64,000 nt of DNA, from the IMG/VR virus record IMGVR_UViG_3300035521_000566; one strand, 5' to 3'. How positions within the stretch are numbered: position 1 is the stretch's first letter; every line of letters starts with the position of its first letter. The notes beneath the pieces are model-generated. The model was not told the DNA's origin, made no database searches, and saw only the letters and a program-made list of their open reading frames with translations. Shown piece by piece: positions 3,001-48,753 of this stretch. Made by a program: the position numbers and the translations under genes. This stretch comes from a virus (taxonomy: Duplodnaviria > Heunggongvirae > Uroviricota > Caudoviricetes).

Positions 3001-5049
3001 CGATGTCTGCAATGTATTCTTGATTTCCTCGTTCATCTGACGAATAAACTTACTGGAGTGACTGCCCATTACGGCAGCAGTCTTATCATCAAACTTAAGC
3101 AAACGATTCTTAATAACGCCCGCATAGTAATCACTGCCCTTCATTTCTTCAGAGGTGATACCTGCCAAATCCATAGCGACAATCATTGTGTTATTGTTAT
3201 AATCAATTGACTGCTCCGTATCCATAAAGCTCGATACTCCGACAGGATTGAAACGCTTACCATTTGCATCTGGCTCATACTGACCAATGTTGGCGTCTAC
3301 GCTATCGGCTGCGTGCTGATGAATCTGCTCAACGATAGTACCCTGATAATACTGTGGTGCATCTGATTCTTCATCAAAACGTGAAACCTCGGTTCCAACA
3401 ACTGGAAGTGAAATTTCGCTGATGTCAGATGCCTCTGTAGTAAGAGCATACCAGTATTTCTTTTGGATACCTGCAATATCCTCATCCATAGAATAAGGAT
3501 ATACATAATCAGCGTCATCCCTATGTGCTTCTGCCTGAGCAATCATATCTTCAATGTTGAGTGCGTCCAAATAATTTGTTCTTGCACTCTGAACTGCATT
3601 CTGAAGATAATTGATTGCGTCATCTTTCGGTGATACAGCTTCAGTTGTCTCAGTTGCACGAACACCAAACCACTGTGTTCTCTCTGCTACCGCAGGAGAA
3701 ACAGTAATATTGCCTGCCTTGTACAAATTACCGTTAGCTGCATCATACTGGAATGTTGCATGACCGCTATTACTTGCATAATAAGCTGTATTTGATGCAA
3801 CATAACTGTTGGTATTGCTCTTCTTAGAAACAACTACGTCTGGCTGTCCAACCATCGGAGCACGCTCTTTATTTAATCTGTTCTGATTTATCTTCTCGAC
3901 AGGAATACCCTGCGTAAAGTGAATCAAATCCATAACATTCTTTGCTGTAGCCTGATACGGCTGTGACTCATAACCGCCTGAATTTGCAGGTTTACGCTCA
4001 TCAGTCGAGAATCTGTAATTCATGTTATATGCCATTACTTTGCCAAAGTTAAAGCCAAAGTTGGAACCAGCCTGAGGAACTACAGTAACATTAGAACCAT
4101 AATCATTCAATCTGGCAATCAACTCACCTGAATCACGGCAATAAACACTATAATCATATCCTTCTTCGCTCATCAGTCTAAGTAACTCTGCTGACTGTCT
4201 AAGCTGCTCTTTTGTAGGACGTGTACCACTATGAGCTCTTACATATATATTACGAATATTGCTATATTCGTCTGATGATAAATAAGGCTTGAATGCAGCA
4301 AAACCAGTAACATCATCTATATCATAAAATGGTACAACATTTTTCACTGGATAACTGCCATCAGCTAATGAACCATATCGCTTCGGCATATCGTTCCAAG
4401 ATTTTGCACGACCTCTGTACATATATATGTTAGATGTAACGCCTGTCGGCTGAGCATACCACATACCAACCTGCTCAAACATAGACTTATCTACATAGAG
4501 AATTTCAGAAGGATTCCTTAAGAATGCACTTCTGTCCTGAAATGTCTCGTCATATGGTGATAACGGAATAAAATCTGTTAAACCGTTATTGTTTGACATA
4601 CGGTGCGACTCAAACATATTTGTAGTAATGTCCTTATATGTAGCTTCTGAAATATTTGCTTCTGGAAATACTTCGTTTAGAGTGGCAAGTATCTCAGAAG
4701 TACGATTGTTTGCCTGAGCGACAACGTCTGCATCGGCTGAAGAAAGTGATGCTAAAATATTCGGTCCTGAAAAAGAAAGAACAGCATCATCGTTAAAATC
4801 GAAATGCTTACCCTTCGCAGTGTATGCACGCAACGTATTCAAATATGACTTTGTTGCTGGTTGTTCTCTCAACTTGTTAATCCATTGACGGCGAATATTA
4901 CGAGCTTCACTTACAGTAATAGGTTTCTGATGTGCGTCTAAACGCTGTTCATTAACCTTTTGCACAGCCAACGCAAAAACATACTCGTTTGCCATTTTCT
5001 GATATACATTTTTGCTTGGAAGTGCATCATAAGATTTGTAATCTGACAT
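1..5049 (-). CDS. giant multisubunit-RNAP-like protein (fused beta / beta-prime homolog), N-terminal 1683 aa; ORF continues beyond window start
   Basis: ATG at 5049-5047 with SD AAAGGAG ~8 nt upstream. Hand translation found no in-frame stop down to nt 1. Motifs KVGDKILDFGGNKGV (nt ~1929-1970; cf RpoB GDKxAGRHGNKGV), ARFIVTHMTVDEKTHIY (nt ~1660-1710; cf RpoB LKLHHLVDDKMHAR), VMVWRDPLLRDAGVRYLHVKVDENLVGVAINPVMDKGYDGDFDGDSVAIV (nt ~531-700; cf RpoC NRAPTLH...NADFDGDQMAVH). Confidence 0.6.
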   Translation of the reverse strand, partial: MSDYKSYDALPSKNVYQKMANEYVFALAVQKVNEQRLDAHQKPITVSEARNIRRQWINKLREQPATKSYLNTLRAYTAKGKHFDFNDDAVLSFSGPNILASLSSADADVVAQANNRTSEILATLNEVFPEANISEATYKDITTNMFESHRMSNNNGLTDFIPLSPYDETFQDRSAFLRNPSEILYVDKSMFEQVGMWYAQPTGVTSNIYMYRGRAKSWNDMPKRYGSLADGSYPVKNVVPFYDIDDVTGFAAFKPYLSSDEYSNIRNIYVRAHSGTRPTKEQLRQSAELLRLMSEEGYDYSVYCRDSGELIARLNDYGSNVTVVPQAGSNFGFNFGKVMAYNMNYRFSTDERKPANSGGYESQPYQATAKNVMDLIHFTQGIPVEKINQNRLNKERAPMVGQPDVVVSKKSNTNSYVASNTAYYASNSGHATFQYDAANGNLYKAGNITVSPAVAERTQWFGVRATETTEAVSPKDDAINYLQNAVQSARTNYLDALNIEDMIAQAEAHRDDADYVYPYSMDEDIAGIQKKYWYALTTEASDISEISLPVVGTEVSRFDEESDAPQYYQGTIVEQIHQHAADSVDANIGQYEPDANGKRFNPVGVSSFMDTEQSIDYNNNTMIVAMDLAGITSEEMKGSDYYAGVIKNRLLKFDDKTAAVMGSHSSKFIRQMNEEIKNTLQTSGCYVEDKDILIDENGVVQYKVRQAVGKNKTVADAGKASLDTVEMTGYIGQIFAPETEYPGVITKFANGDNYMFVPGYTATILPQKPGENLSLEERTRLDGYEQHMARAIRSHVKKDMLVEFARYEGAPRGETTSLNHVYRQLYDVRHPVDYVEITREEGMDDDLRKAILETEASRVSYGKKFKEGATLNASYQSTKNPYILVDDLNSDALTLTGGRNMAILSEESDGYFDKDATSTGITQGITRYLVQGAKVDMDGHIIPSDNKDDRTALFLHPYMQFSDNVPFDRRQMVFNNLLKAQKVSEPIQMAQMTLGGWNFDDGFVVTDKFARENPVRDHDGNMRPMKVGDKILDFGGNKGVIPLIYDTSMTREEAEEQGLAEVHDFFEANPDVQVVGAPFAAVGRFNASSYLECRQETHDMVNPKTGETLPGSIGTARFIVTHMTVDEKTHIYDEAEFDAGNGRSASAQLGWGLDSKGSVAIKKSFYSDNDRAFQNMREYMIVCGLDMDETGHIKDSYEPHNGESRHIFAMPEPQYKTVVRKNAKAPITSLDIRKSKNDFIKEIGKKGGFLELPFPLKFPEGGGMIPRLVEETEIEVPGEKMIRYNKESWTVTRNGKTFEAHRNKDLLEGSKSKTTVAGEPKVSYGLPVLSSYLRSGQRFEDGTQSVHDYTKQYATIYEHAVRYIDAERKLSSNISDADKEKARQTMETSRSRAQRAFDEITGDIIKHKFDSKYNAFKSEMMTNTLPRSATAVWTADPRLNIEDVAIGADMAKAIGVKEGDGVMVWRDPLLRDAGVRYLHVKVDENLVGVAINPVMDKGYDGDFDGDSVAIVALDTQLADEPTSDEARSKAVSEFIESWHDYIETPALTDTELAEAAQHRYMSYNSDIRRETLTDVANEWRKASANPPLPEAMLEAGRKLRASENKKENIAAANQEAEDNAWARARSYGMSRADFEADWNEKQDYHYAKMAARKDFIKQERANGNTDKNSATVKFEMQWLSQHG

Positions 5050-5081
5050 AATGAATAAGCTCCTTTCTAGTTATTATGTTT

Positions 5082-5110
5082 ATTATATATCCATATATGG
5101 AGATTGTCAA
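5082..5110 (-). promoter_or_regulatory. class A promoter: TTGACA-ATCTCCATATATGGATA-TATAAT, drives the giant RNAP-like gene
   Basis: Exact -35 and -10 consensus with 17-nt spacer read on the minus strand; start codon 33 nt downstream. Confidence 0.6.
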
Positions 5111-5210
5111 CAACTGATAATTTTTACAAAAATTTACGGCAACAGACACGCTGCTACCGAAACCTTATTATTAGTCAATTGCAGACTAACTGCAATTATA
5201 GGAACTACCG

Positions 5211-5305
5211 TTACTTTTTATTTAGAAAAAGATGCAAAAAGATGCAAAAAGATGCAAAAAGATGCAAAAAGATGCAAAAAGATGCAAAAAGATGCAAAAA
5301 GATGC
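5211..5305. repeat. tandem 10-bp repeat AAAAGATGCA x9 (phased A5 tracts, predicted intrinsically curved DNA) ~100 bp upstream of the class A promoter of the RNAP-like gene
   Basis: Direct reading of the sequence; period 10 bp matches the helical repeat. Confidence 0.6.
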
Positions 5306-5335
5306 AGAGCCGAAGCTCTGCACCCAAAAAATATA
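5306..5335 (-). terminator. rho-independent terminator (GCAGAGC-TTCG-GCTCTGC + U-run on minus strand) after gene 5370..6890
   Basis: Hairpin followed by T-rich tract on the transcribed strand. Confidence 0.5.
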
Positions 5336-5369
5336 GGAGGTCGGGCTCCAAACAGCCCTCTCTGATTAG

Positions 5370-6890
5370 CTACTCATATACATACATTTCAATACTTGTG
5401 AGCACACCATCTACGAATGAAAACTCAAAACTTCTGTCGTCTGAGTCATATGTATAATAAGTGTATTCACCCCAACTGTCAGTGCTGATACTCTGATAAG
5501 AAGGCTCTCCTAAAATTGCCTTTACATTATCAGTTGTAGATGCAAATGTGACACCGTCTATAGATACATTCGGTCTCTCGCTGCCCGTGCAGCTACCGAA
5601 ATCAAGTTCAAAACCTGAAAATCCTGAACTCGAAATACCAGCGATGGTACTGTTATTGCTGCCACGGTCTGACTGATATACGAATAAAATTGCGTCTGGA
5701 TACTTTGCATTTTCAGCAGTACAGAAACTATATTCACCATCGTCATTTATATCAAGCTGCCAGCCGTCTGCACCAAATATGCTGTCAAACGAATTATTTT
5801 TATATGATAAACTGACTCCGTTGTAAGACATAACATCAGATGTCACAAGACTCTGACTTGGTTCTGTTCCAGTCCAAGCATCAGACTCTGAAGTATCTTC
5901 TGCATCAGTATCATTTGTAATATCAGAAGAACTGTCTGTAGAATCATCAGTTTCGTCGATTATAGAATCATCTATATCTTCGATTATGGACTCATCTGAA
6001 GCTTCAACTGCATTCTTTTTAATGTCTTTAGAAGCCTGTACATCATCTGATTCAATCTTTCCAAAGTCAGAAAAATCAAAATCAATATCAATCGTAATAC
6101 TGAGTTCCAATTCCTGTCCGTCACTCTCAAAAGTGGTTGAATATACCAAATCTTCGGACTTAAGACTCTCTAAGTTAAAATCTGAATCGAATACATATAC
6201 AACAGATGCTTTTCCAAAAGCTTCAAGTACATCATCTGCATCAATATCATCGTTAATTGAGCTTACTGCGTCATCCAGACTATCTGTATCTCCCATAAAC
6301 TCTTTAAAGCTATCACTCTCAAGAATAGATGATACTGGCTGTGTTACAGTATATGTATCAGAATCTTTGTCATAGGACATTTTAGAATCATCAAACAAAC
6401 TGGTATCTATATTCTGGCTCGTAAGCATTGTTAACTTATCTTTATTCTCAGTCACCTCAGAATATGTCCAATCAGATGTCTCACCGTCCTGTGTTTCCTG
6501 CATGTAAACAATAGGATTTTCTTCATCAAAATCCATATATGTTTCAGCCTTTACATTCGTCTGTTGACCCATTACTTCCATATCCATTGATACATTAAGG
6601 TGTGAATACTGACCAGCGACATCGCCCTTAATACCTAAATCAATAGGAATAGACATACTTACGCCTTCTGCACTTATGTCGATACCCGCAGTAATCGTAC
6701 CATCCATGCTGTAATTTGTATTATCATTTTTCTGCCAGTTTGCAACTACATCAGCAGCAGTTTCAGGCTTCTTCGAGTTCTTTCCAATTTCAATGCTGCA
6801 ACCCGACAACATAGACGCACTCAGCAGAAACATAGTTCCTGCTATAAAAACCTTCTTCTTTCTCATAGTCGTATGCTCCTTCTTACCCAA
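5370..6890 (-). CDS. acidic Ser/Thr/Asp-rich lipoprotein (signal peptide + lipobox LSGCS)
   Basis: Six-frame ORF; N-terminal MRKKKVFIAGTMFLLSASMLSGCS; low-complexity D/S/T-rich body. Confidence 0.55.
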   Translation of the reverse strand: MGKKEHTTMRKKKVFIAGTMFLLSASMLSGCSIEIGKNSKKPETAADVVANWQKNDNTNYSMDGTITAGIDISAEGVSMSIPIDLGIKGDVAGQYSHLNVSMDMEVMGQQTNVKAETYMDFDEENPIVYMQETQDGETSDWTYSEVTENKDKLTMLTSQNIDTSLFDDSKMSYDKDSDTYTVTQPVSSILESDSFKEFMGDTDSLDDAVSSINDDIDADDVLEAFGKASVVYVFDSDFNLESLKSEDLVYSTTFESDGQELELSITIDIDFDFSDFGKIESDDVQASKDIKKNAVEASDESIIEDIDDSIIDETDDSTDSSSDITNDTDAEDTSESDAWTGTEPSQSLVTSDVMSYNGVSLSYKNNSFDSIFGADGWQLDINDDGEYSFCTAENAKYPDAILFVYQSDRGSNNSTIAGISSSGFSGFELDFGSCTGSERPNVSIDGVTFASTTDNVKAILGEPSYQSISTDSWGEYTYYTYDSDDRSFEFSFVDGVLTSIEMYVYE

Positions 6891-12181: not shown

Positions 12182-13384
12182 TTATGATTCTAACTGCTTC
12201 TTCATCTGCTGGTCAAACTTGCCGTTTGCAAATCTCCATGATTTCTGTGAAGCCAGGAATCTGTAAAACTCATCTGTTACAGTAAATGAACCAAAGCTTG
12301 TAAGCTCAGACTTATCAATATCACCTTCGCCATAAACACTGGTATCGCCATCTTTCGCAGCCTGATTTAATGCATTCAAATCGGCTGAAGAATCAGCTCT
12401 TAAGATATATGGCTCTCCGTGAACACCATAGAGATTACCGTTTCTACAAGTAAAGTAGCCTGTGTCATTCCACATGTCACCCTTTACTTCAGTATAAGCC
12501 TTAATAATCTCTTTGTCGAGACTATGGCTGATACCTGTAGGAGAAACCAGCATATCAGGTGAAATCATACCGCCAGCAAACTTCTTTTCAGAATTAGCTT
12601 CGTAATTCTTCATTTGCTTTGCAATTTCCTGCAACTGCTCGGTATTCTCTTCAGCTGAACCCCACATATCATCCTCATCATCGAAATCGTAATCAAAGTC
12701 CTCGAACTCCTCTTCGTCATCGGTGTTCATATTACGGACATATGTATTGATAATATCCATAATTTCATCAGCATAGTTATCAGAATCCAACTGCTCAATA
12801 TCATAATCCGTATACTCATAAGCTGTCTGATACAGGTCTTTAGCAGCCTGTGCCTGATATGCCTGATTCATACGCTTATCAAGCATCTTCTTGAAATCTG
12901 GCTGATTCTTACGTACATCGAAATCAATCGCACTGGAAAGAGTAGGAATTGTCTGTAATGTATACTCTTTACCTGGTTGTGTGATTGTATTCTTGAACAA
13001 TCGCCATGACATCGGCAGAATCGTCTCGTTTCTATTCCAGATAGGTGAGTCACCTGCACGGAATATAATACTGTTACGTTCTGAAATGAATGCCATATCA
13101 TTGTAACTGATAACTGGTACTTCTTTGGTTGTCATCGTATAAGTTGCCTTGCCTTCGTTGGCACTCATACCCTTGAAGATTGTTTCCATATCTCTTGTTA
13201 CAGACTTAGAATCTGTAAATGATTTATGCGTTATACCAGACATTTTCTGCAAGGTATCAAGCATACTATCATCAGTCGACTTCAGGAATACGATGTTACT
13301 TGTGTTTCCTTGCACTATCTTATCTACGCTATCGCCGTAGACATCTTTCAATTGCTGTAATGTTTGTAATATTAAAGATAGCAA
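12182..13384 (-). CDS. type IV coupling protein (VirD4/TraG/TrwB family) C-terminal fragment (putative exon 2) with long acidic tail
   Basis: N-terminus SLILQTLQQLKDVYGDSVDKIVQGNTSNIVF aligns with T4CP motif VVLGLQSISQLRSTYGEDGAQTLLGNLNN; acidic tail DEEEFEDFDYDFDDEDDMW resembles F TraD C-terminus. Confidence 0.55.
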   Translation of the reverse strand: MLSLILQTLQQLKDVYGDSVDKIVQGNTSNIVFLKSTDDSMLDTLQKMSGITHKSFTDSKSVTRDMETIFKGMSANEGKATYTMTTKEVPVISYNDMAFISERNSIIFRAGDSPIWNRNETILPMSWRLFKNTITQPGKEYTLQTIPTLSSAIDFDVRKNQPDFKKMLDKRMNQAYQAQAAKDLYQTAYEYTDYDIEQLDSDNYADEIMDIINTYVRNMNTDDEEEFEDFDYDFDDEDDMWGSAEENTEQLQEIAKQMKNYEANSEKKFAGGMISPDMLVSPTGISHSLDKEIIKAYTEVKGDMWNDTGYFTCRNGNLYGVHGEPYILRADSSADLNALNQAAKDGDTSVYGEGDIDKSELTSFGSFTVTDEFYRFLASQKSWRFANGKFDQQMKKQLES

Positions 13385-13588
13385 TAGGTAAGAATTTGAA
13401 GTTATCTCTATCTTTTCCCCTGCTCCACACCGTGCATGCGACTTTCACCGCACACGGCGTTCCATCACATTTCTGTGACTTGTGTCCATTCCTACTTCTC
13501 TCATTACAAGAGCTATCATCAGTTCGAACACTACTTTTCAATATCCATTAAACTGCTTATTATTCTTCGTCAGTAAACAAACCTGAAT

Positions 13589-13609
13589 TGAATATTGAAA
13601 TATGCTAAA
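13589..13609. repeat. 21-bp inverted repeat TTGAATATTGAAATATGCTAA, left copy (partner at 14829-14849) flanking the endonuclease ORF
   Basis: Perfect 21/21 reverse-complement match. Confidence 0.6.
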
Positions 13610-14756
13610 TATGACTATCTAAATACTTAGTGATTTTATCTTGTGTATCATATGTATACTTAATTTCTAACAATGGAATATTCAATGAAACTGCATAATC
13701 TTTCTTTAATTTATCGTGTTTCTTTTGAATATCAAATCTTGCTTCACCGCCAAACCATTTCACTGGTCTATAATGCTGTTCGCCTTGACATTCAATAAAC
13801 ATATATGGCTTATCATCTTTATAAATTAAAAAATCATACGATAATTTACCATTACCAACACCAAGTAAGTCGTCGTAAGTCTTTTGAACCTCATGCATAA
13901 TGCCTTTGTCATCTAAATATTGTCTCACATAAGACTCCATATAAGGTTGAGCTTTGCATCCACACGACTTACTAATACCTGACTTTAACATATTGCCTGC
14001 TACAATATGCTTTTGATGACAAATGCACTCACATTCCCACATCATTGCCCTGCCACCGCCTGGATAGAATCTGTCATCAACACGTCTTAAAACTGTCCAA
14101 TACCCAAATACACGACCTGTTAAATCTTCATATGTGGCTGCCTTTGCCTGTCTTTCCTTACGATAACAACCACACGATACTGATTTACCAGACAATAAAG
14201 CTTGTTCAGAAACATCTCTGACAGTTCCGCATTCACATTTACAATGCCACATTTTCACACGACGGTTATATTTATAAACACCATCGACTCTATACTCGAC
14301 ATACCATCTTCCAAATGTTTGGTCAGATAAATCTCTGTCAACAGACAATCGTTCAGATTTTAAACATCCGCATGATAATGTTGTACCTGATTTTAATGAA
14401 TGTGCTCTTAAATCTTTTTCTGTACCACAGTCACATCGACAATGCCACATTGTTGCTTTTTTACCAGATGGTTCTATTACAGAATCAGTTCTATATAACA
14501 CAGTCCAACGACCAAATCGTTGGTTTGATAAATCTTCAAGATTAACACCCTTTAAACTTTCTTTACGGGAACATCCACAACTCTTAACACCACCGTTTTT
14601 TAATGATGATGCTCTTACAACAGTTATATTTCCACACTCACACTGGCATTTATACATTACATTGATTCTGCCACTGGATGTAATCTGATTATCTGTTCTA
14701 TGCAACACATGCAACTTTCCAAATGTCTTGTCACTTAAATCTTCAAATTTTCTCAT
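13605..14756 (-). CDS. free-standing endonuclease-like protein: four Cys4 zinc-ribbon repeats + C-terminal Vsr/DUF559-like (PD-(D/E)xK superfamily) nuclease domain; homing-endonuclease candidate
   Basis: Four repeats of the form W(H)CxCxCG...SCGC...FGRW...YRTD; C-terminus YDFLIYKDDKPYMFIECQGEQHY matches the DUF559/Vsr-like pattern DF....IExxGxxH. Confidence 0.55.
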   Translation of the reverse strand: MRKFEDLSDKTFGKLHVLHRTDNQITSSGRINVMYKCQCECGNITVVRASSLKNGGVKSCGCSRKESLKGVNLEDLSNQRFGRWTVLYRTDSVIEPSGKKATMWHCRCDCGTEKDLRAHSLKSGTTLSCGCLKSERLSVDRDLSDQTFGRWYVEYRVDGVYKYNRRVKMWHCKCECGTVRDVSEQALLSGKSVSCGCYRKERQAKAATYEDLTGRVFGYWTVLRRVDDRFYPGGGRAMMWECECICHQKHIVAGNMLKSGISKSCGCKAQPYMESYVRQYLDDKGIMHEVQKTYDDLLGVGNGKLSYDFLIYKDDKPYMFIECQGEQHYRPVKWFGGEARFDIQKKHDKLKKDYAVSLNIPLLEIKYTYDTQDKITKYLDSHI

Positions 14757-14828
14757 TTATAACATCCTCCACCTGCTGTAGTTTATGTAATAAATATACC
14801 ATAATTTGAAGCAAAAATCAATAAGTTT

Positions 14829-14849
14829 AGCATATTTCAATATTCAATT
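14829..14849. repeat. 21-bp inverted repeat, right copy
   Basis: Reverse complement of 13589-13609. Confidence 0.6.
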
Positions 14850-15305
14850 ATCAAGGTTCGCTGAATATCTTTCCAAGTTCCGTTATATCTATCTTTACAT
14901 ATTTACCCTTAGGTCTTTGCTCTAGTCCTGCCTATCTTGATTATGCCTGTAACATAATAAGGAGTTTCATAAGTTCAATTTTTACTAATCCTCAATAGAC
15001 TTAATTATATTTCTATAATTTGCAACTTAAGAACCGTACATTCGCAAATTCGTCAGATATTCATCATTCTAACCATAGGTAATTTATAGACATCCGACAT
15101 ATTAGTCACCATATAATCAATATACTTTCAAACAGGCGGATTCTAATCACTTTTGAACCAATTATACTGATACACATCATACTTAGGCTTCTGTCTGTCG
15201 ACTTTAACGAGCTTCATACAAATCAATGCATGTCGTAGCTTAATGTGAATATTTCAAGGCGTTACCCTATCATTCTATTCATTGATATAACAGTTCGCAT
15301 AATAA

Positions 15306-18300
15306 CTATGCGGCAAAACTTTTCATTTTGCAACTTGTCGCACTAAACTGTTGCTCCTGACCAAGTCCGATGGAAAGCATAGTCTCGAATCCTGAAATAC
15401 CATGTCCTTCTGACTGTAAGTTACCCAACTCATCTAACATAAATCGTGTTTTATAAAGTGGCTTCTGATTACTTTTAGTCATATATGACTGGTCGAAGTT
15501 CAAGTCAACCAACTGCTTAATCAGAATCAAAATCAACTTTGCATATTTCATCAAATGTGGCGGCGTTACCAAGAACACCATCTTAGGCTTCTCTGCGTAA
15601 CGAGCCATCGTACGAATAATTGCATTCGTCTTTACGGTACCACGTTCTGCTCTACCTGTAATATCAACAATCTTATCCTGGTCAAATGTTGTCTTACCCT
15701 TACGGTAAGTAATCTTGCCAGCTTTGTCCTTCACAGGTCGCAACTCTGTTAAGATACCGTTTTTAACTATCTTGTCACCCAGTACAGGGTCTGTTACGTA
15801 CTTCCTGCCGTCCAAAGAAGTCTGATAACTCTTCTTGAACTGGAAGTAAAACTTACGGATTAACATTCCTGTCTGTGGGTTCACTATTTCAAGCTTAATA
15901 TAAGCTGTCTCATTCGGGTATTTACCCTTGAAATAATACTTAGCCCATCCTTCACGAGTGACAAGGTCTTCGTGATAGAACTCTTTGCCAAGCTCATGCT
16001 CGAATCCTGGGTCATCGTAACTCATCCATTTTGCCTGCATACCAATCAGGTGATAGTTATGCACAAAATCTGAGTTGAAACGAACGCCAAGTCTTCGAGG
16101 GAATGACATACCTGCCAAATCTACATTCTGGGCTGGTGTACCCGATGTCAAAGTCGAAATTGTAGGGTCTGTAAAAAACGACATCGCTGTAATAGCAATT
16201 CCGTATACAGACGCCATCATCTTTTCTGCACCTGCCATAGCTTTCAAAGCATTGTTGGCATTGGCTACCAGCGTTCTCATTGAGTTTCTAGGAAGAGCAT
16301 CTGTTGCATTAAAGTAAAGAGTTAATAAGTCAGCCTCAGGCTTATCTTCCCACAACTTAGACTGATTTTCAACTTTTGATACTTCAGCATCATAATCTTC
16401 CTGAGACAAATCGTCTAATTCATGATTCTTTACTTTATTTGCAAATTCTACCGACGGATTCTTAAGCTTTTTACTTGTCAACTGTACGAACAACTGATAA
16501 GTGTTGTAAAGAGTAACCTTACCCCACATCTCGTCCAGCTTTGACTCCAAAATCTTATCATCCATCTTTGTTCGTTCTGCAAACAGTCGAAGCTCTTTTT
16601 CTTCTTCCAGATAAAAGTCAATCAAACCGTAAGCGGCACGCTTGAAAGCATTATTTGCTGCATTGGGCCACACGGGGTCGTCACCACCATCAAGTGGGAA
16701 GAATACATCTGCAATGTTTTCTACATACATCGCAGCTTTGGTGAAGTCTCCCTCCCGTGCAGCATCTGCAGCCATTCCCAGAGGGTTATAAATATCGGTT
16801 TTCATAGCGTTAATCAGATTGAACTGGACTACCTGAAAACCTCTAACAGTTGCCCTGACATAATTCTTAACCAAAAGCTCACCCTTCGGGTCATTGACAA
16901 CCATATTATTTGGTCTTCTTTCTCTTGTCCACATATCAAGTGTAGGTTCAATTACAGTCTGACCTTTACCAGCTCTGGTGATAGCAAGAACCATCGTATT
17001 TACGGGTGCTGTATCTACAATATATGCTCCTGCTGGTCGCTGAGGTTCGTAATACGGAAACTCCCAGTCAGCGTTAATCAAATCTGCAACTGTATTGAAT
17101 TTGCCTAACTTTTCTCGGTCAGAACCATCTGGATTGTATGGAATCTTCGTTGTATCGTAATACTTTCGAATTGTCTTATCCTTTGGAGCACCTGATGCCT
17201 GAAATAAATCTTCCATGAATTCAGTATCTATAATAGGTACCTCGTCATATAATGGATTTCCATCATCATCTAATAAGACTTCCCCTTTGTAATACTCGAT
17301 GTCACCATCTTCATCCAGAATGTCTGTTTCTGCCCTCTTTGAAAGTTTGACTTTCTTCAAGCCCTTATTCATAAGAGCCATATGGGAAATCATACTGGAA
17401 AACTGCACATCCGACGTGGCTCCTACATCTGGGAACCAATCAAACTTTCTTTGTACTTCTTCTGGCAAAGCAATATGTTGGTCATTCTGATATTGGTTAA
17501 TATCAGCTGTATCAGAAAGCATATTCTGTGCCTCTAAGTTACGCATCATTGCTGTATAAATCAAAGCAAACGTAATAGAAGAACAAATAAGTGAAAATAA
17601 CAGCTTTCCTACAGTTGGCTTCCAGCTGATACCTAAAGTATCAGATACAGATTTTGAACTGCTATCATCACTGCTATCATCACTGGTCTCATCATCTGAA
17701 GCATTAACAGGTGTTGAGGAAAATGTGCCAGTTGACAAATCATAATAACTTGAAATAGTTCCCGCAGGACTACCGTCCAGCTCTGTAATCTTTACATCAG
17801 GATGATTTGGGCATGTGTAAACATTCTCCATACCTTCTGTACTAACTGACCACGTATCAATGACTTCACCTGTGGCTGTGTTCGTTACATTATACACGCC
17901 AAACTTTTCTTTCACAATCTGATATGCTGTAGAATTACTATCTGAAACATTGTCGCTTGACGACTCAGTACCTTTAAATTCTCCAGTGTGCATATCATAA
18001 TAAGCCGAAATAGTTGATATTGCACTGCTATCCTGCTCAATAAGTTTGGCTGATGGATAATTAGGACATGTATAAGCATTCTCCGTACCACTTGAATCAA
18101 TGGTCCATGTGTCAATAATTTCGCCTGTTTCAATGGATTTTACATAATAAATTCCATATCCTTCGTCAGACCTTTCAACTTGATACATTGCAGTGCCTGA
18201 TGAATCTTCGTTTCCTCCTTCTTCGTTGATAGGGTTCCCATCTTCATCCACAGACGTTGTTGTATCTGTTGTTACGACGGCTTGATTCATCAAACTGTTT

Positions 18301-18515
18301 AATCCAGGTGACACAATACACGCAATCGCATATGATAATACTGCCACAATCGCTGTGATTACCAGACAAATGATAATACGACCTGTCTTACCCTGCTTAG
18401 CCTGTAAGTGACCACGCTCTAACTGCTGGTCTTCATACACATCACGGTATCGCATGGTATCCTTAGCCTGCTGCTCGCTAATCAGGTCCCAATTTCGTTT
18501 TGCCATTTGCAACAC
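15306..18515 (-). CDS. type IV coupling protein VirD4/TraG-like ATPase, N-terminal part (putative exon 1), with duplicated extracytoplasmic domain
   Basis: VLAITRAGKGQTVIEPTL...MVVNDPKGEL (T4CP Walker A region), RFMLDELGNL (Walker B); TM - two ~65-aa repeats (GYGIYYVKSIETGEIIDTW...YTCPN) - TM - ATPase. Confidence 0.65.
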   Translation of the reverse strand: MLQMAKRNWDLISEQQAKDTMRYRDVYEDQQLERGHLQAKQGKTGRIIICLVITAIVAVLSYAIACIVSPGLNSLMNQAVVTTDTTTSVDEDGNPINEEGGNEDSSGTAMYQVERSDEGYGIYYVKSIETGEIIDTWTIDSSGTENAYTCPNYPSAKLIEQDSSAISTISAYYDMHTGEFKGTESSSDNVSDSNSTAYQIVKEKFGVYNVTNTATGEVIDTWSVSTEGMENVYTCPNHPDVKITELDGSPAGTISSYYDLSTGTFSSTPVNASDDETSDDSSDDSSSKSVSDTLGISWKPTVGKLLFSLICSSITFALIYTAMMRNLEAQNMLSDTADINQYQNDQHIALPEEVQRKFDWFPDVGATSDVQFSSMISHMALMNKGLKKVKLSKRAETDILDEDGDIEYYKGEVLLDDDGNPLYDEVPIIDTEFMEDLFQASGAPKDKTIRKYYDTTKIPYNPDGSDREKLGKFNTVADLINADWEFPYYEPQRPAGAYIVDTAPVNTMVLAITRAGKGQTVIEPTLDMWTRERRPNNMVVNDPKGELLVKNYVRATVRGFQVVQFNLINAMKTDIYNPLGMAADAAREGDFTKAAMYVENIADVFFPLDGGDDPVWPNAANNAFKRAAYGLIDFYLEEEKELRLFAERTKMDDKILESKLDEMWGKVTLYNTYQLFVQLTSKKLKNPSVEFANKVKNHELDDLSQEDYDAEVSKVENQSKLWEDKPEADLLTLYFNATDALPRNSMRTLVANANNALKAMAGAEKMMASVYGIAITAMSFFTDPTISTLTSGTPAQNVDLAGMSFPRRLGVRFNSDFVHNYHLIGMQAKWMSYDDPGFEHELGKEFYHEDLVTREGWAKYYFKGKYPNETAYIKLEIVNPQTGMLIRKFYFQFKKSYQTSLDGRKYVTDPVLGDKIVKNGILTELRPVKDKAGKITYRKGKTTFDQDKIVDITGRAERGTVKTNAIIRTMARYAEKPKMVFLVTPPHLMKYAKLILILIKQLVDLNFDQSYMTKSNQKPLYKTRFMLDELGNLQSEGHGISGFETMLSIGLGQEQQFSATSCKMKSFAA

Positions 18516-23000: not shown

Positions 23001-23183
23001 CTAAATCTTCCCAGTCTGTCGATAGGTGTCTAAATATAGCTGTATTGCGTGCTCTATAGTAACCGTTTTTGTCAATCCAGTTTCTTCACAGAAATTATCC
23101 AAGTCGTTTGCTATATCTTCTTTAACATAGCAATTAACATACCGTCCAGCTTTCTTTGGACGACCTACAGGTTTTTCAGCCAT
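23001..23183 (-). CDS. small ribbon-helix-helix (CopG/Arc-like) DNA-binding protein
   Basis: 60 aa; GRPKKAGRYVNCYVKEDIANDLDNFCEETGLTKTVTIEHAIQLYL fits the beta-alpha-alpha RHH pattern. Confidence 0.45.
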   Translation of the reverse strand: MAEKPVGRPKKAGRYVNCYVKEDIANDLDNFCEETGLTKTVTIEHAIQLYLDTYRQTGKI

Positions 23184-24002: not shown

Positions 24003-24243
24003 AATCGTAATCTCCTTTCAGATATAAACATTGAATTTAAGCTACTAATGGAGTGTTCTCCATATGTATGTAACTTCTAAATTGAATAGTACACTATTTT
24101 TAATATTATGTCAAGTGCTTTTTATTATAAAAATTTTAATTTTTTTTTAATAAAAATTTGGAGACTAGATTTCGGCTAAAATCATACGCTTCTACTCTAT
24201 CCATACTATAATAATATTATAATATAGTACCTATCTGAAAATA

Positions 24244-24272
24244 ATCATAGTACCATATATGGAGATTGTCAA
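24244..24272 (-). promoter_or_regulatory. class A promoter: TTGACA-ATCTCCATATATGGTAC-TATGAT
   Basis: ~240 nt upstream of gene 23460..24002, so a long leader. Confidence 0.45.
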
Positions 24273-24329
24273 CATCTTACAGAAATTTTAAGCATTATGC
24301 ACAAAGCACACTTTTGACACACCACACCT

Positions 24330-25004
24330 GGTATAGAAGGTATAGAAATTTTTTGAAAACTTTTTAAAGCAAAATAAAATTGCGTATTTTTGAAGATTTC
24401 AATCTGTTTTACATAAAATAGCTTAAACCATTGATAATAGCCTCTCTCAGCTATTTTACGAAACCGAAATCCGAACTATTAAAATTTTTTCAGACATCTA
24501 ATGACTTATTTATTTTCTATACCTTCTATACTAAAATATAAAAAATACTCATATATAAGGATTTTCTGGTATAGAAATTAAATTTTCAAAAATTTTAAAA
24601 ATTATCATAAAACTGCTCACTGCCCTGTAAATAAAGGCTCTCAGCCATTTTCATACCGTTTTCAATTTCTATACCGCTGAAACCCCTGTAAATAAAGGCT
24701 CTCATAAAAACGCTTTCTGAGACGCCCTATTATCAATGTTTCCAGAAGTATAGAACTTCTATACCAACTTCTATACCAATTTGCTATTGACTTTTTCGAA
24801 AAATTGTGAAACTGCTCTCTGGTATAGAAATTGAATTTGACTTCTATACCGCTACAAGCACTGTCAATAACAGCTCTTATCAAGTGTCCTTCTGAAAGCC
24901 CCAAAACATCAGTGTTAGAGACAATCGACACTTCTATACCAAAAAATGCTCATTTATAAGGCTTTTTAAATACGGTATAGAAGTTCTATACCAATTTCTA
25001 TACC
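24330..25004. repeat. iteron field: at least 15 copies of the 9-mer GGTATAGAA / TTCTATACC in both orientations (several as palindromic pairs GGTATAGAA-N-TTCTATACC) plus two copies of CTGTAAATAAAGGCTCTCA; putative replication origin or partition site
   Basis: Copies at 24330, 24339, 24515, 24524, 24568, 24667, 24748, 24757, 24769, 24831, 24842, 24932, 24974, 24984, 24996; the ~940-bp region is non-coding (only one low-confidence 89-aa track ORF at 24662..24931) and sits immediately upstream of the HTH + primase-helicase operon. Confidence 0.55.
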
Positions 25005-25110
25005 AACCCCTTTTTGTGCACATTTCACAAAAATTCGCTGATAATGCCGAGATTCTAATTCTGTAAAATATAAATAATATATTCATAACAAATACCCATT
25101 AGAATTTTTT

Positions 25111-25162
25111 TACTCATTTATGAGATTTCTATGTTGACAGCTAGACTCACTTTTGCTATACT
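25111..25162 (+). promoter_or_regulatory. palindrome CTCATTTATGAG (25111-25124) followed by promoter TTGACA-17-TATACT (25134-25162) for the replication operon (HTH + primase-helicase)
   Basis: Sequence match to consensus; possible operator overlapping or upstream of -35. Confidence 0.5.
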
Positions 25163-25226
25163 TTGTTTATGAATCATAAGATTTTATAAGTTTAATTTAG
25201 TTAAAAATTTAAGGAGGAACTTCACA

Positions 25227-25415
25227 ATGCCGAATGAAAAGCCATTTTTGACAGCTCAGGAATTTGCAACTGCAATTGGAATACATGTACAGACAGTTCG
25301 CAAATGGGACAAAGAAAATTTATTAAAGCCGCACCACACCACCCCTGGTGGACATAGACTCTATTCACAGGAACAGGTTCAAAATTATTTTGATGGTAAA
25401 TACACCATGAAATAA
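25227..25415 (+). CDS. small HTH DNA-binding protein (AlpA/excisionase/MerR-like HTH)
   Basis: LTAQEFATAIGIHVQTVRKWDKENLLKPHHTTPGGHRLYSQEQV; SD AAGGAGGAA; first gene after the plus-strand promoter at 25134-25162. Confidence 0.5.
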   Translation: MPNEKPFLTAQEFATAIGIHVQTVRKWDKENLLKPHHTTPGGHRLYSQEQVQNYFDGKYTMK

Positions 25416-25452: not shown

Positions 25453-27123
25453 ATGCACGCCAAAGACGACAATATCAAAGACATTACAACTCTCGACATC
25501 AGCCAGGCTCTTGCATATACTGAATTTTTGTCCAAAGATGAATGCGTAAAAGCCATCACAACTGAATATTTACATGCAGATGACTTTGATGAAACAATGC
25601 CGCCTTCGCAGATAAAGCAAGAATTACTTGCTAAAATGCACGAAGTCTTCACTGACCATAACACCGTTGCTGAAAAAGGTGCTAAGTGGCAGCTTCCGTC
25701 TTCTTTATTCGAATCCCAAATTGCAGACATTTTGCTTAGATTATATCCAATCTGCCGTATTGCCTGTGCTGGAGCAAATGCTGACACAGAATACGACTTA
25801 CTTGCAATTTATCAGTCTACTGGACCTGATGAAGGCATATATGTAACCAAAGAAACTGTCTTTAACGAATTGATTCGTCAGTTTAACTATAACATTACAA
25901 CAAAAGGCATACACGAAGTTATCATGTGTCTTCGTGATGTATGCGAGCGAAAACTTCGTTGTACTGACCCTGATTTAATTGCAGTTAACAACGGTATCTT
26001 TAACTATAACACCAAACAGCTTCAGCCGTTTGACCCTAAATATGTATTTATAGCCAAGTCCCGTGTAGATTATAATCCGTTTGCCACGAACATAACTATA
26101 CATAATCCTGACGATAATACAGACTGGAATGTTGAAGATTGGGTTACTGAATTATCAGATAATCCTGAAATCGTAGAATTATTGTGGCAGATTATGGGAG
26201 CCATTATCCGTCCGCACGTAAACTGGAATAAATCAGCATGGTTCTATTCTACGAAAGGAAACAACGGAAAAGGCACACTATGTGCGTTAATGCGAAATAT
26301 CTGTGGTAAAGAAAGCTATGCTTCTATCCCACTTTCTGACTTTGGTAAAGATTTTATGCTGGAACCGTTATTACAAGCTACAGCTATCATTGTAGACGAA
26401 AATAACGTCGGTGAATTTATTGACAAAGCTGCAAACCTGAAAGCTGTAATCACAAATGATGTTATTCAATTAAACCGAAAATTCAAGACACCGATTGCTT
26501 ATCAGTTTTATGGCTTTATGGTACAGTGTATCAATGAACTGCCTCGTATTCGAGATAAGTCTGATTCTTTTTATAGACGTCAATTATTCGTACCGTTTGA
26601 CAAATGCTTCACTGGTCACGAACGACGCTATATCAAGTCTGATTATCTGAATCGACCTGAAGTCTTGGAGTATGTTTTATTCAAAGTATTGAATATGAAT
26701 TATTATGAGCTGAATGAACCTGAAGAATGTGTTATGGCACTTTCTGAATATAAGATGTTTAATGACCCTATTAAGCAGTTTATAGATGAGTTTATATCAC
26801 AGTGTGTATGGGATGTCCTGCCATTTTCTTTTTTATATGATGGTTATAAAGCCTGGTATAAAAAGAATTCGCCAGAAGGTAAGATGCAAGGTAAGAGCAC
26901 CTTTATTACTGATTTGCTCAGTTCAATTACAAATGATTCAGGCTGGTATTGCCCTGGTAGAAGCAAAGCTATTAAGACAGGTTCTAAGATGGATAAGCCA
27001 GAGCTCCTAATCTGGGAATATGAATTAAACGATTGGAAGAATCCATATTACAAAGGTGGCGACATACACATTATTTGTAAAGCACCTGTAAAACAAACTG
27101 TAAACGGTTTGATTCGTATTTAG
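25453..27123 (+). CDS. D5/P4-family primase-helicase (SF3 helicase domain)
   Basis: Walker A YSTKGNNGKGTL, Walker B TAIIVDENNVG; overall D5_N / P4-type C-terminal helicase architecture. Confidence 0.65.
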   Translation: MHAKDDNIKDITTLDISQALAYTEFLSKDECVKAITTEYLHADDFDETMPPSQIKQELLAKMHEVFTDHNTVAEKGAKWQLPSSLFESQIADILLRLYPICRIACAGANADTEYDLLAIYQSTGPDEGIYVTKETVFNELIRQFNYNITTKGIHEVIMCLRDVCERKLRCTDPDLIAVNNGIFNYNTKQLQPFDPKYVFIAKSRVDYNPFATNITIHNPDDNTDWNVEDWVTELSDNPEIVELLWQIMGAIIRPHVNWNKSAWFYSTKGNNGKGTLCALMRNICGKESYASIPLSDFGKDFMLEPLLQATAIIVDENNVGEFIDKAANLKAVITNDVIQLNRKFKTPIAYQFYGFMVQCINELPRIRDKSDSFYRRQLFVPFDKCFTGHERRYIKSDYLNRPEVLEYVLFKVLNMNYYELNEPEECVMALSEYKMFNDPIKQFIDEFISQCVWDVLPFSFLYDGYKAWYKKNSPEGKMQGKSTFITDLLSSITNDSGWYCPGRSKAIKTGSKMDKPELLIWEYELNDWKNPYYKGGDIHIICKAPVKQTVNGLIRI

Positions 27124-27746: not shown

Positions 27747-28211
27747 ATGTTAATGATTAAAGAACCTGGAATTGATATTTTCAATCTTCCACAAAATACA
27801 CACGAAGCAATGTGCGTCACTACGAACGGTATTGTCAAAGCTAATGGCTGTGCTGTTATGGGTGCAGGTATTGCAAAAACCGTGAATCAGAGATTCCACG
27901 TAGATAAAACACTTGCAGACCTGCTACTCATACAAGGGAATATTCCGTTTGATTTAGGAATTCATAGCTGGAATGGTCATATGTTTCACTTACTGTCATT
28001 CCCTACAAAACATCATTGGAGCAACCCTTCAGACATTGATTTGATTAAACAATCTGCCATGTGGCTTGTAATAATTGCTAACCAGCTGAACTTATCACAT
28101 ATATATCTCACACCACCTGGCTGTGGCTGTGGACAATTAGACTGGGCTGACGTGAAGGCTGTAATAGAACCAATTTTAGATGACAGATTTATTGTTGTCT
28201 TTAATCACTAA
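27747..28211 (+). CDS. macro-domain-like protein (possible ADP-ribose binding or hydrolase)
   Basis: VTTNGIVKANGCAVMGAGIAKTVNQRF resembles the macro-domain core NAAN..L..GGGVAxAI; weak, sequence-pattern only. Confidence 0.4.
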   Translation: MLMIKEPGIDIFNLPQNTHEAMCVTTNGIVKANGCAVMGAGIAKTVNQRFHVDKTLADLLLIQGNIPFDLGIHSWNGHMFHLLSFPTKHHWSNPSDIDLIKQSAMWLVIIANQLNLSHIYLTPPGCGCGQLDWADVKAVIEPILDDRFIVVFNH

Positions 28212-42196: not shown

Positions 42197-42270
42197 GTAC
42201 CCTGCAAGAGACTCGAACTCTCAACCAAAGCCTTAGAAGGACCATGCTCTAATCCATTGAGCTAACAGGG
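42197..42270 (-). tRNA. tRNA-Arg (anticodon TCT)
   Basis: Hand-folded cloverleaf: acceptor ACCCTGT/GCAGGGT, T-loop TTCGAGT, anticodon loop CTTCTAA. Confidence 0.6.
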
Positions 42271-42277
42271 TGTGTAA

Positions 42278-42353
42278 GTATCTCCGACAGGATTCGAACC
42301 TGCGACAAACCGACGTTCGTAGCGTCGTGCTCTTGTCCGTTGAGCTACGGAGA
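42278..42353 (-). tRNA. tRNA-Arg (anticodon ACG)
   Basis: Acceptor ATCTCCG/CGGAGAT, anticodon stem CGACG/CGTCG, loop CTACGAA. Confidence 0.6.
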
Positions 42354-42361
42354 TATGTAAA

Positions 42362-42432
42362 CAGGCGATAAAGGAATCGAACCTCTGCCCTCAGGGTCAG
42401 AACCTGATTTGCTACCATTACAACAATCGCCT
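42362..42432 (-). tRNA. tRNA-Gln (anticodon CTG)
   Basis: Acceptor AGGCGAT/ATCGCCT, anticodon stem TCAGG/CCTGA, loop TTCTGAC. Confidence 0.55.
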
Positions 42433-42437
42433 ATAAG

Positions 42438-42509
42438 TACGAGTGGAAAGAATCGGACTTTCGTTACTTCCGTATCAGAGAAGTGCTCTACCATTGAACT
42501 ACACTCGCA
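42438..42509 (-). tRNA. tRNA-Ile (anticodon GAT)
   Basis: Acceptor GCGAGTG/CACTCGT, D-stem GTTC/GAGC, loop CTGATAC. Confidence 0.55.
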
Positions 42510-42512
42510 TAA

Positions 42513-42584
42513 AGATTTCGGAGAGAGTCGAACTCTCGTCTACAGGGTTGCAACCTGTCGTCTTAGCCTCTTGACTACGAAATC
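42513..42584 (-). tRNA. tRNA-Cys (anticodon GCA)
   Basis: Acceptor GATTTCG/CGAAATC, anticodon stem ACAGG/CCTGT, loop TTGCAAC. Confidence 0.55.
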
Positions 42585-42590
42585 ATTGAG

Positions 42591-42682
42591 CGTGGATAGT
42601 GAGACTCGAACTCACACACCGCCATAAGACGATTACTCAGAGATTAGCAATCTCTTGCCTTACCAATTAGGCTTATATCCAC
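42591..42682 (-). tRNA. tRNA-Ser (anticodon GCT), long variable arm
   Basis: Acceptor GTGGATA/TATCCAC, anticodon stem AGAGA/TCTCT, loop TTGCTAA, 92 nt. Confidence 0.55.
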
Positions 42683-42689
42683 GAATAAA

Positions 42690-42761
42690 CAGGGCGTATG
42701 GGAATCGAACCCATTCTGCGGGAGTCAAAGTCTCGTGCACTGACCATTATACTAACGCCCA
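42690..42761 (-). tRNA. tRNA-Gln (anticodon TTG)
   Basis: T-arm ATGGG-TTCGATT-CCCAT; loop CTTTGAC; one mismatch in anticodon stem and at 1:72. Confidence 0.45.
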
Positions 42762-42768
42762 ATATAAG

Positions 42769-42842
42769 CAAGTCTGGCAGGAATCGAACCTACGTTGCAT
42801 GGTTTTGGAGACCAGCCGATTTCCAATTATCTTTACAGACTT
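42769..42842 (-). tRNA. tRNA-Trp (anticodon CCA)
   Basis: Acceptor AAGTCTG/CAGACTT; loop CTCCAAA. Confidence 0.5.
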
Positions 42843-42849
42843 ATGATAA

Positions 42850-42934
42850 CGCCGTGCCAGGGATTCGAACCCTGATACCCTTTCGGGATGTCGGTTTTCA
42901 GGACCGATGCTGTACCAATTGAGCCAACACGGCA
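42850..42934 (-). tRNA. tRNA-Ser (anticodon TGA), long variable arm
   Basis: Acceptor GCCGTGT/GCACGGC; anticodon stem TCGGT/ACCGA, loop CCTGAAA; variable hairpin CCCGAAAGGG. Confidence 0.5.
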
Positions 42935-48173: not shown

Positions 48174-48242
48174 GAAAAAAAATTACTCCTTTCTTAACTT
48201 AATAAAACTCCTGTAACTAAATAAAATTACAAGAGCTTTTAG

Positions 48243-48316
48243 TTGCGGGAGCTGGATTCGAACCAGCGTATCCCAGGTTATGAGCCTGATGAGCATCCTC
48301 TACTCGCCATCCCGCT
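48243..48316 (-). tRNA. tRNA-Met (anticodon CAT); A1:A72 mismatch at top of acceptor stem
   Basis: T-arm GCTGG-TTCGAAT-CCAGC, anticodon stem TCAGG/CCTGG, loop CTCATAA. Confidence 0.55.
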
Positions 48317-48326
48317 ATATGTAAAC

Positions 48327-48402
48327 TGCAATGGTGACACTAAGCCTCGAACGTCAAGCCTTGCGGCTTAACGCCCGTCTCCCACGACGTTTTACCCATT
48401 GC
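48327..48402 (-). ncRNA. 76-nt structured element closed by a perfect 7-bp terminal helix (GCAATGG/CCATTGC) but with non-canonical core; atypical tRNA-like or other small RNA
   Basis: Terminal helix and T-loop-like GTTCGAGG present; D and anticodon arms cannot be folded canonically; internal hairpin AAGCC-TTGC-GGCTT. Confidence 0.3.
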
Positions 48403-48482
48403 TATTTCTTATGTGTGCATACATAAGAACCTTATGCCTGAGTTTTAATGTACTGTTCATGCACTCAAGTACATCTGCTCCA

Positions 48483-48553
48483 TACTCGTAATGGGATTCG
48501 AACCCACGTCTAAAGATTAAAAATCCTGCTCTGTCCAAACTGAGCTATACAAG
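48483..48553 (-). tRNA. tRNA, probably Lys (anticodon TTT) with weak 4-bp anticodon stem
   Basis: Acceptor ACTTGTA/TACGAGT, T-arm GTGGG-TTCGAAT-CCCAT, loop TTTTTAA. Confidence 0.4.
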
Positions 48554-48707: not shown

Positions 48708-48753
48708 ATATCACAACAAATCTTGTCATGACTTGCAATATTATTGCAATTAG

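Follow-up and report, generated by a model that had tools for sequence, protein, structure and literature searches.

A field of 9-bp iterons upstream of a D5/P4-family helicase gene as a probable replication origin of the SaPI/PICI type

A dense field of short repeats lies at positions 24330-25004 of a 64-kb stretch of the virus record IMGVR_UViG_3300035521_000566 (the whole analysed stretch is referred to as the window), upstream of an operon encoding a small helix-turn-helix (HTH) protein and a helicase of the D5/P4 family, the gene of the latter being designated rep. The question raised by this locus is whether the repeats form a replication origin, as proposed in an earlier sequence-only reading, or whether they serve the titration of the initiator, the regulation of the operon or the partition of the element. 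Because the helicase is homologous to PriRep5 of the Staphylococcus aureus pathogenicity island (SaPI) SaPI5, the architecture follows the rule described for SaPI origins and the same layout recurs in relatives, the field is assigned, with a probability of about 0.7, to the Rep-iteron type of origin of SaPIs and phage-inducible chromosomal islands (PICIs). The recurrence of the layout in relatives is the strongest evidence for this assignment.

Composition and architecture of the repeat field

The 9-base motif GGTATAGAA showed 14 exact matches in the window, 13 of which are located inside the field on both strands, compared to a chance expectation of 0.49 for the whole window; at least 14 copies were reached in none of 100 shuffles. 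Two further copies in the field carry one mismatch (AGTATAGAA, at 24524 on the minus and 24747 on the plus strand). For the 8-mer GTATAGAA, 15 copies were counted in the field compared to three in the rest of the window, which is in line with the at least 15 copies of the sequence-only reading and lies far beyond chance. The field spans 675 bp, holds 15 iterons and is located 449 bp upstream of the rep start, within a non-coding gap of 1,224 bp (24003-25226) that had previously been estimated at about 940 bp. Both palindromic iteron pairs described before were found, the first at 24748-24765 (its start had been given one base too far to the right, at 24749) and the second at 24974-24992. The same holds true for the two exact copies of the 19-mer CTGTAAATAAAGGCTCTCA (24625-24643 and 24686-24704), which belongs to a larger, diverged duplication of about 200 bp that copies groups of iterons as well. 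In this duplication, 24667-24727 resembles 24842-24902, 24748-24779 resembles 24975-25006 and 24565-24585 resembles 24818-24838.

A scan of the field against Rfam gave no RNA family at the gathering threshold, and a match to a plant snoRNA (28.7 bits compared to a gathering score of 100) was dismissed as chance. A search for near-identical DNA among the plasmids of PLSDB and the phages of INPHARED gave no match. The sole exact copy of GGTATAGAA outside the field, at 45341, is likely a chance occurrence on the edge of an array of eight copies of a 15-bp unit with GGACTTTC (45231-45343, minus strand), which lies within the open reading frame (ORF) 44798-45613 and probably codes for a 5-residue repeat.

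The iterons are arranged around a core in which a direct and an inverted doublet enclose an AT-rich spacer, while ten of the 15 iterons lie outside this core in two modules (A and B) between the core and the rep promoter (Table 1). A strict detector, which asked for a 7-mer repeated exactly as a doublet (period 8-11) and again as an inverted doublet 40-320 bp away, found a single site in the window, namely this field, and was positive for 32 of 92 related sequences. On 276 Markov shuffles (3.2 Mb in total) zero sites were detected, and nearly all real hits showed a period of 9.

The field was footprinted by alignment to a relative with 85% identity (locus L009). Here the iterons were invariant and the spacers had diverged, except for the 58-bp stretch 24533-24590, which includes the 35-bp block following the inverted doublet and showed only three differences. 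Although the sequence of the 167-bp spacer had diverged in L009, its AT content was still 73%. The field of L009 includes a run of N in the assembly, which is probably a gap caused by the repeats. The 35-bp block contains CTCATATATAAG at 24548-24559. For 60-bp windows across 24499-24610, a dG of about -58 to -60 was calculated compared to a mean of -74.8 (sd 4.8) for the whole window, and this region comprises the least stable duplex of the field. A spacing of 33-36 bp, similar to the 35-bp block, was also present in the related loci L094 and L095, and the start-to-start distance of 43-45 bp from the inner doublet to the single iteron recurred in L005, L009, L015, L030 and L047.

Table 1. Features of the repeat field and of the adjacent operon (positions in the window)
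Feature	Position	Strand	Remarks
Leftward promoter of the 180-aa gene	24244..24274	-	TTGACA-17-TATGAT; marks the left edge of the field; inside a recurring 21-bp block
Left iteron doublet	24330..24347	+	2 x GGTATAGAA, period 9; core invariant in L009; half of the only doublet/inverted-doublet site of the window
AT-rich spacer between the doublets	24348..24514	.	167 bp; 75% AT compared to 63% for the window
Right, inverted iteron doublet	24515..24532	-	TTCTATACC TTCTATACT, period 9
AT-rich block from inverted doublet to next iteron	24533..24567	.	35 bp; candidate melting site
Single iteron	24568..24576	+	closes the sub-unit of inverted doublet (--), 35 bp and iteron (+)
Accessory module A	24612..24779		32-nt repeat twice (19-mer exact) around iteron 24667-24675 (-), then triplet 24747 (+), 24757 (-), 24769 (-)
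Accessory module B	24818..25006		diverged duplicate of module A, based on repeat families D2, D3 and D4; inverted pair 24821 (+)/24842 (-), single iteron 24932 (-), triplet 24974 (+), 24984 (-), 24996 (-); also holds CTCATTTATAAG at 24949-24960
Palindrome CTCATTTATGAG	25113..25124		just upstream of the -35 box of the operon promoter; candidate operator
Rightward promoter of the HTH-helicase operon	25134..25162	+	TTGACA at 25134, 17-nt spacer, TG-TATACT ending at 25162; 11/12 matches, TG extension
MerR/HTH_17-type DNA-binding protein	25227..25415	+	62 aa; first gene of the operon
SF3 (D5/P4-family) helicase	25453..27123	+	556 aa; Pfam D5_N, DUF5906, Pox_D5; TIGR01613

The field sits wholly between two divergent promoters and overlaps neither of them. 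The boxes of the leftward promoter span 24272-24244 and are followed by the 180-aa gene, which is of unknown function. On the other side, the promoter of the HTH-helicase operon is conserved in L009, together with a second motif, CTCAT(A/T)(A/T)AT(A/G)AG. This motif was found at 24548, 24949, 25113 and 46892, with a perfect palindrome at 25113 and 46892. Related CTCATA motifs precede the HTH gene in L009, L013 and L032, as palindromes in the latter two, and in L095 such a motif lies within the field. As a hypothesis, the CTCAT..AT.AG sites would represent the operator through which the MerR-type HTH protein regulates the operon. The copy at 46892 lies 84 bp upstream of a 303-aa HTH_17/Myb-like gene. 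An ORF of 89 aa inside the field (24662-24931, minus strand) was not called by metagenome gene callers and is interrupted by indels in L009; it is very probably not a gene.

The helicase and the related loci

By sequence as well as by fold, the closest solved relative of the 556-aa helicase was PDB 7OLA, i.e. PriRep5 of SaPI5. A profile search of the helicase family against PDB gave 7OLA with an E value of 4e-66 (chain residues 296-749), and a Foldseek search with the AlphaFold model (pLDDT 76.7) showed 7OLA in first place (E 7.6e-30, TM 0.76, 29% identity), with D5-type helicases of African swine fever virus and poxviruses far behind. Model and alignment both continue past the ATPase domain. 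In SaPIs, Rep acts as initiator and self-loading helicase at once, and its C-terminal winged-helix domain reads short iterons (PMC9371898). According to the rule for SaPI origins, 6-12 iterons are located immediately beside rep; the centre is AT-rich and is flanked on either side by two or more iterons, which point in opposite directions (PMC9371898). The window showed an SF3 (D5-like) helicase homologous to the SaPI Reps, short iterons directly beside rep, though on the opposite side of the gene than in SaPIs, and an AT-rich centre flanked by iterons in ++ orientation at 24330/24339 and in -- orientation at 24515/24524.

Altogether, 84 non-redundant loci encoding relatives of the helicase were compared, in which a field was defined as at least six copies of the respective 8-mer within 700 bp. 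A field next to the helicase gene was observed in 59 of the 84 loci, with copies in both orientations in 56 of these 59, while loci without a field scored 3-5 copies. It was located upstream of the helicase gene in 47 loci and downstream in 11; ten of these 11 downstream fields begin 41-69 bp past the stop codon, which corresponds to the position in SaPIs. The hosts of the related loci range from Clostridia (Lachnospiraceae etc.) to Streptomyces, Arthrobacter and Kribbella. Although the iteron motifs are specific for each lineage, they form one family (xxxACAA), comprising GGTACAA, GATACAA, GCCACAA, GGAACAA, GTGACAA, CGTTACA and GTGGTACA. The common core consists of two doublets with a period of 9 bp, which are oriented in opposite directions around a spacer of 63-248 bp, and in 12 relatives the equivalent spacers were 5-23 points more AT-rich than their loci.

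In the clade of the window, the field is invariably located upstream of the HTH and helicase genes. Within this clade the iteron drifts with the identity of the helicase, from GGTATAGAA at 100% and 85% via TGTATAGA at 75% and 72% to GTATACAA at 65%. Since this series fixes it, the forward orientation of the window motif relative to the family could be assigned. The relative with 65% identity (L096, 4900-5620) comprises two interleaved motifs, namely GTATACAA with 10 copies and GTTACAA with many copies. The latter includes a triplet with a period of 9 bp at 5086-5110 and is similar to the iterons that accompany the other type of helicase (L015: CGTTACA). This single field might be read by both paralogous helicases.

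A small replicon with the same arrangement is the Streptococcus thermophilus plasmid pST5A (5.2 kb, NZ_CP065503.1), which contains only the genes pri, a P4-family rep (28% identical), a 75-aa hypothetical ORF and a recombinase. Directly after rep, TTGTTCTC doublets, an AT-rich stretch and GAGAACAA doublets follow each other, and this stretch is obviously the origin of the plasmid. Altogether, the proposal of an iteron-type origin is supported by the homology of the helicase, the layout according to the SaPI rule, the 59 of 84 relatives and this plasmid, whereby the origin would not be of the classical Rep_3 type.

What was directly observed are the repeats with their geometry and conservation, the homology of the helicase to known proteins and the repeated occurrence of the layout across the family; from these we infer a course of events from binding via melting to origin firing. 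The SF3 helicase would recognise the 9-bp iterons GGTATAGAA and assemble on the two opposed doublets, plus the iteron at 24568. It would then melt the AT-rich DNA in between, i.e. the 167-bp spacer and/or the invariant 35-bp block, and load itself as replicative helicase, so that no separate loader would be needed. The ten additional iterons (24612-25006) would most likely contribute to cooperative binding or to titration of the initiator ('handcuffing') for copy control and autoregulation.

Objections and competing explanations

Several observations weigh against an origin at this position or limit the claim. First, the GC skew did not switch at the field, with a mean of -0.172 per kb for 1-24 kb compared to -0.173 for 30-64 kb. 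The trend is broken only by the local plus-strand operon, which had been described as the only one on this strand; the window contains other plus-strand operon(s). The sequence-only reading had itself regarded a missing strand-skew switch as half of what would speak against an origin, and this half was observed. Due to the missing switch, the claim is limited to 'an origin' and does not extend to 'the main bidirectional origin'. The latter may be represented by a paralogous module located on the same contig at a distance of 93 kb, at the minimum of the cumulative skew. This module encodes the D5-type helicase P0019 (63% identical; L007, 10001-11641), whose field is located at L007 7875-8611 (JGI contig Ga0376477_0000002, about 111.2-112.0 kb) and comprises TGATACAA doublets around a spacer of 244 bp with 80% AT, plus copies of AGTTGATAC, without a gene for a MerR-type HTH protein. 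On this contig, the field described here corresponds to about 19.1-19.8 kb. The surrounding genes (RecJ, DUF1848, a 1,091-aa protein, nucleases and a DEAD helicase) form a replication/recombination cluster at the cumulative GC-skew minimum.

Second, the cognate primase, which in SaPIs is either encoded separately upstream of rep or fused to it, was not found. No primase domain was found in the 556-aa helicase and no primase match in the neighbouring ORFs, so that of the formerly assumed primase-helicase only the D5/P4 helicase part (D5_N, DUF5906, Pox_D5) is retained. The 465-aa protein of the operon was considered as a candidate and rejected, as it showed no Pfam, NCBIfam or PDB match and belongs to a PHROG family of unknown function. 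Third, 25 of the 84 relatives, including the HTH-type loci L013, L016 and L032, had no field within about 5 kb. Fourth, the outer doublets are arranged ++ ... -- in the clade of the window compared to -- ... ++ in most of the family. The family arrangement is shown by the sub-unit at 24515-24576 (-- and + separated by 35 bp), and no other part is as conserved and as unstable as its spacer. Finally, pairs of loci sharing a motif by convergence (L012/L026, L005/L014, L018/L035 and L044/L058) were no more alike in any helicase domain, i.e. the co-variation of domains with the iteron followed no clear pattern.

In the most probable of the alternatives, the helicase would bind the iterons, but the field would serve as an array for titration of the initiator, copy control or autoregulation, while replication starts at the paralogous module or elsewhere. 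Much like incA of P1, the field would then only sequester or handcuff the initiator or repress the rep operon. The missing skew switch, the second module of helicase and field at the skew minimum and the ten iterons in the duplicated modules A and B, outside the core and in front of the rep promoter, would fit such a function. Nonetheless, the complete core geometry of doublet, AT-rich spacer and inverted doublet is present and conserved. Furthermore, the iterons of the paralog are different (TGATACAA, with GTATAGAA being absent from L007), and the two systems therefore look orthogonal and not as if one controlled the other. Compared to an origin, a pure titration array is considered unlikely.

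A second alternative concerns the reader of the iterons. Direct repeats serve as binding sites of BldC-type proteins, and the doublets of the field are tandem repeats with a period of 9. Since the first gene of the adjacent operon encodes a small HTH protein with a weak match to the BldC family (30.6 bits compared to a cut-off of 77), the repeats could be operator or architectural sites for this MerR/BldC-like protein, controlling the divergent promoters. The distribution of the genes argues against this. While fields were found in 59 of 84 loci, homologues of the MerR-type HTH protein were restricted to the clade of the window and four other loci, and only the helicase gene is shared by every locus that has a field. 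No such HTH gene accompanies the paralog field in L007, in L035 the HTH gene lies upstream and the field downstream of the helicase gene, and several integrated elements encode another small HTH_17 protein upstream of the helicase. In L020 and L037, the small HTH proteins are 79% identical, whereas the iterons are unrelated (GTGACAC compared to CGTTAGAG). The largest difference between the helicases of these two loci was observed in the N-terminal domain (38% identity); in the helicase, residues 28-130 and 486-556 are both hypervariable. In addition, the iterons overlap neither promoter, and it is a different motif, CTCAT..AT.AG, that occurs at the promoter. Taken together, it is very unlikely that the field belongs to the HTH protein, which is probably a regulator and not the iteron reader, and the 556-aa helicase is inferred to be the initiator that binds the iterons and loads itself. 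The 180-aa neighbour was also considered as binding protein and rejected, since among the loci searched its homologues occurred only in the lineage of the window, and it was without family or PDB match.

With its many short repeats on both strands, flanked by divergent promoters, the field resembles type Ib/II centromeres. The sequence-only reading had accordingly named a partition centromere as the other option, and in this case a parC/parS-like site would be bound by a protein encoded elsewhere, for which a 60-aa ribbon-helix-helix protein at 23001-23183, 1.1 kb away, is one candidate (PHROG repressor, weak matches to RepA-regulator and RepB-RCR_reg). However, among about 45 scanned ORFs of the window no partition NTPase and no match to ParA, ParM, ParB or TubZ was detected. 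The same layout was also present in elements integrated into the chromosomes of Streptomyces and Arthrobacter and in the 5.2-kb plasmid without par genes, and the AT-rich centre with inverted doublets fits an origin. This option is considered very unlikely and is the least probable of the three.

Other kinds of origin were rejected: an oriT (the MobL relaxase is encoded 28 kb away, and 15 copies of a 9-mer are not an oriT layout), a classical Rep_3-type iteron origin (no Rep_3-like WH1-WH2 domain in the ORFs of 20.9-31 kb; 9-bp units in both orientations) and an origin with DnaA boxes (one box with one mismatch at 24295, about chance level and deleted in L009).

The host element and comparison with known systems

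The window is part of a large (~210-kb) conjugative element of gut Clostridia. It encodes a MobL relaxase (53491-55620), a VirD4-type coupling protein (15306-18515), a 1,453-aa surface protein, DNA methyltransferases and 30 tRNA genes in two arrays (42197-42934 and 48242-50799). The same helicase protein was found on metagenome contigs of 184, 208 and 210 kb, and relatives are located on contigs of 199-235 kb assigned to metagenome-assembled genomes (MAGs) of Lachnospiraceae, Ruminococcus, Blautia and similar taxa. Pairs of helicase paralogs recur in three MAGs and, probably, on two further contigs.

It is tentatively suggested that a family of tRNA-rich conjugative elements of ~200-235 kb from gut Clostridia are maintained by two orthogonal helicase-iteron modules of the SaPI type (with GGTATAGAA and TGATACAA, respectively) and not by a classical plasmid initiator, although we hold this to be rather doubtful. 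If true, the two origins might serve different modes, e.g. steady-state maintenance compared to establishment after transfer or amplification. The replication of such elements is little understood and tools are scarce. The locus provides a testable pair of origin and initiator for uncultivated ~210-kb conjugative elements of gut Lachnospiraceae and Ruminococcaceae, and the layout could be used for the automatic annotation of origins and for shuttle vectors. The code of 9-bp doublets (xxxACAA) may furthermore allow the prediction of origin specificity from the sequence across Firmicutes and Actinobacteria.

Some further observations were made in the element and its relatives. The rep operon also comprises a 154-aa macro-domain protein (27747-28211, plus strand). 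According to an NCBIfam match below the cut-off (E 9e-16), it resembles the antitoxin DarG in its ADP-ribosyl-glycohydrolase part, while the PHROG annotation is 'phosphatase'; the protein may counter the ADP-ribosylation of DNA. Of the 21-bp block around the leftward promoter, CATATATGGAGATTGTCAA(C/T)A, the window contains six copies with at most two mismatches (5092, 7549, 24254, 34278, 37946 on the minus strand, and 57259), compared to 0 expected. Every copy is located just upstream of a gene along its direction of transcription and contains a TTGAC(A/T) -35 box; the block looks like an element-specific promoter class. Near such a block, eight perfect tandem copies of the 10-bp sequence AAAGATGCAA (5229-5306) lie between the genes for a 506-aa and a 2,541-aa protein.

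A group II intron, indicated by Rfam matches at 15083-15298 and 13378-13462, apparently divides the gene of the VirD4-type protein (12182-18515, minus strand). The upstream exon contains T4SS-DNA_transf and the downstream ORF (12182-13384) TraG-D_C, while the 383-aa ORF of the intron (13605-14756) showed no Pfam match, reverse transcriptase included. For one of the tRNA genes (50430-50500), the predicted anticodon has four bases (gagt), and the score is barely over the Rfam threshold. In L009, a 608-aa gene with matches to RNA_pol_A_CTD and Sigma70_r4 is located between the field and the HTH gene (3658-5484), and a ClpB-like AAA gene (1-1048) carries a LAGLIDADG insertion (966 aa compared to 597 aa).

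Iterons beside a Rep helicase are what specialists would expect; the kind of origin is already known, and the example is new. Compared to classical iteron plasmids (pPS10, RK2, F and P1), the field likewise comprises initiator sites next to an AT-rich unwinding region and additional repeats that possibly act in copy control. While classical iterons measure 17-22 bp, are arranged in direct tandem and are accompanied by DnaA boxes, the iterons described here measure 9 bp, occur in both orientations and have no conserved DnaA box. Classical initiators are WH1-WH2 proteins that recruit the host DnaB via DnaA or DnaC, whereas here the helicase itself would act as the initiator.

The alpha protein of phage P4 belongs to the same P4/D5 helicase family (TIGR01613). 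The P4 helicase itself binds short octamer-type repeats, which lie in both orientations, and the core is accompanied by a further repeat cluster. P4 alpha is a fused primase, helicase and origin-binding protein, and crr is located kilobases from ori, in contrast to the helicase without primase domain and the single contiguous field of the window. The pri-rep plasmids of S. thermophilus, such as pST5A, share the sequence of doublet, AT-rich stretch and inverted doublet, there placed after a P4-family rep, as well as the motif family (GAGAACAA); their helicase is only 28% identical, the primase is encoded by a separate gene and the replicon comprises 5.2 kb.

The systems of SaPIs and PICIs (SaPIbov1, SaPI1 and SaPI5) have in common with the window the homologous helicase, the short iterons beside rep, the AT-rich centre and the opposed orientation of the iterons, and many relatives share with SaPIs a field that directly follows the stop codon of rep. 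SaPI iterons comprise 5-6 bp in 6-12 copies, compared to 9 bp with a strict doublet period of 9 bp and 15 copies over 675 bp determined here. Unlike in SaPIs, the field lies upstream of rep, behind a small HTH gene, and neither a primase gene nor a primase domain was found. The layout of SaPI origins extends beyond phage satellites to megaplasmid-like elements, integrated elements of Actinobacteria and small plasmids. Compared to a SaPI, which is a phage satellite of ~15 kb, the host of the field described here is a conjugative element of ~210 kb that carries two such modules.

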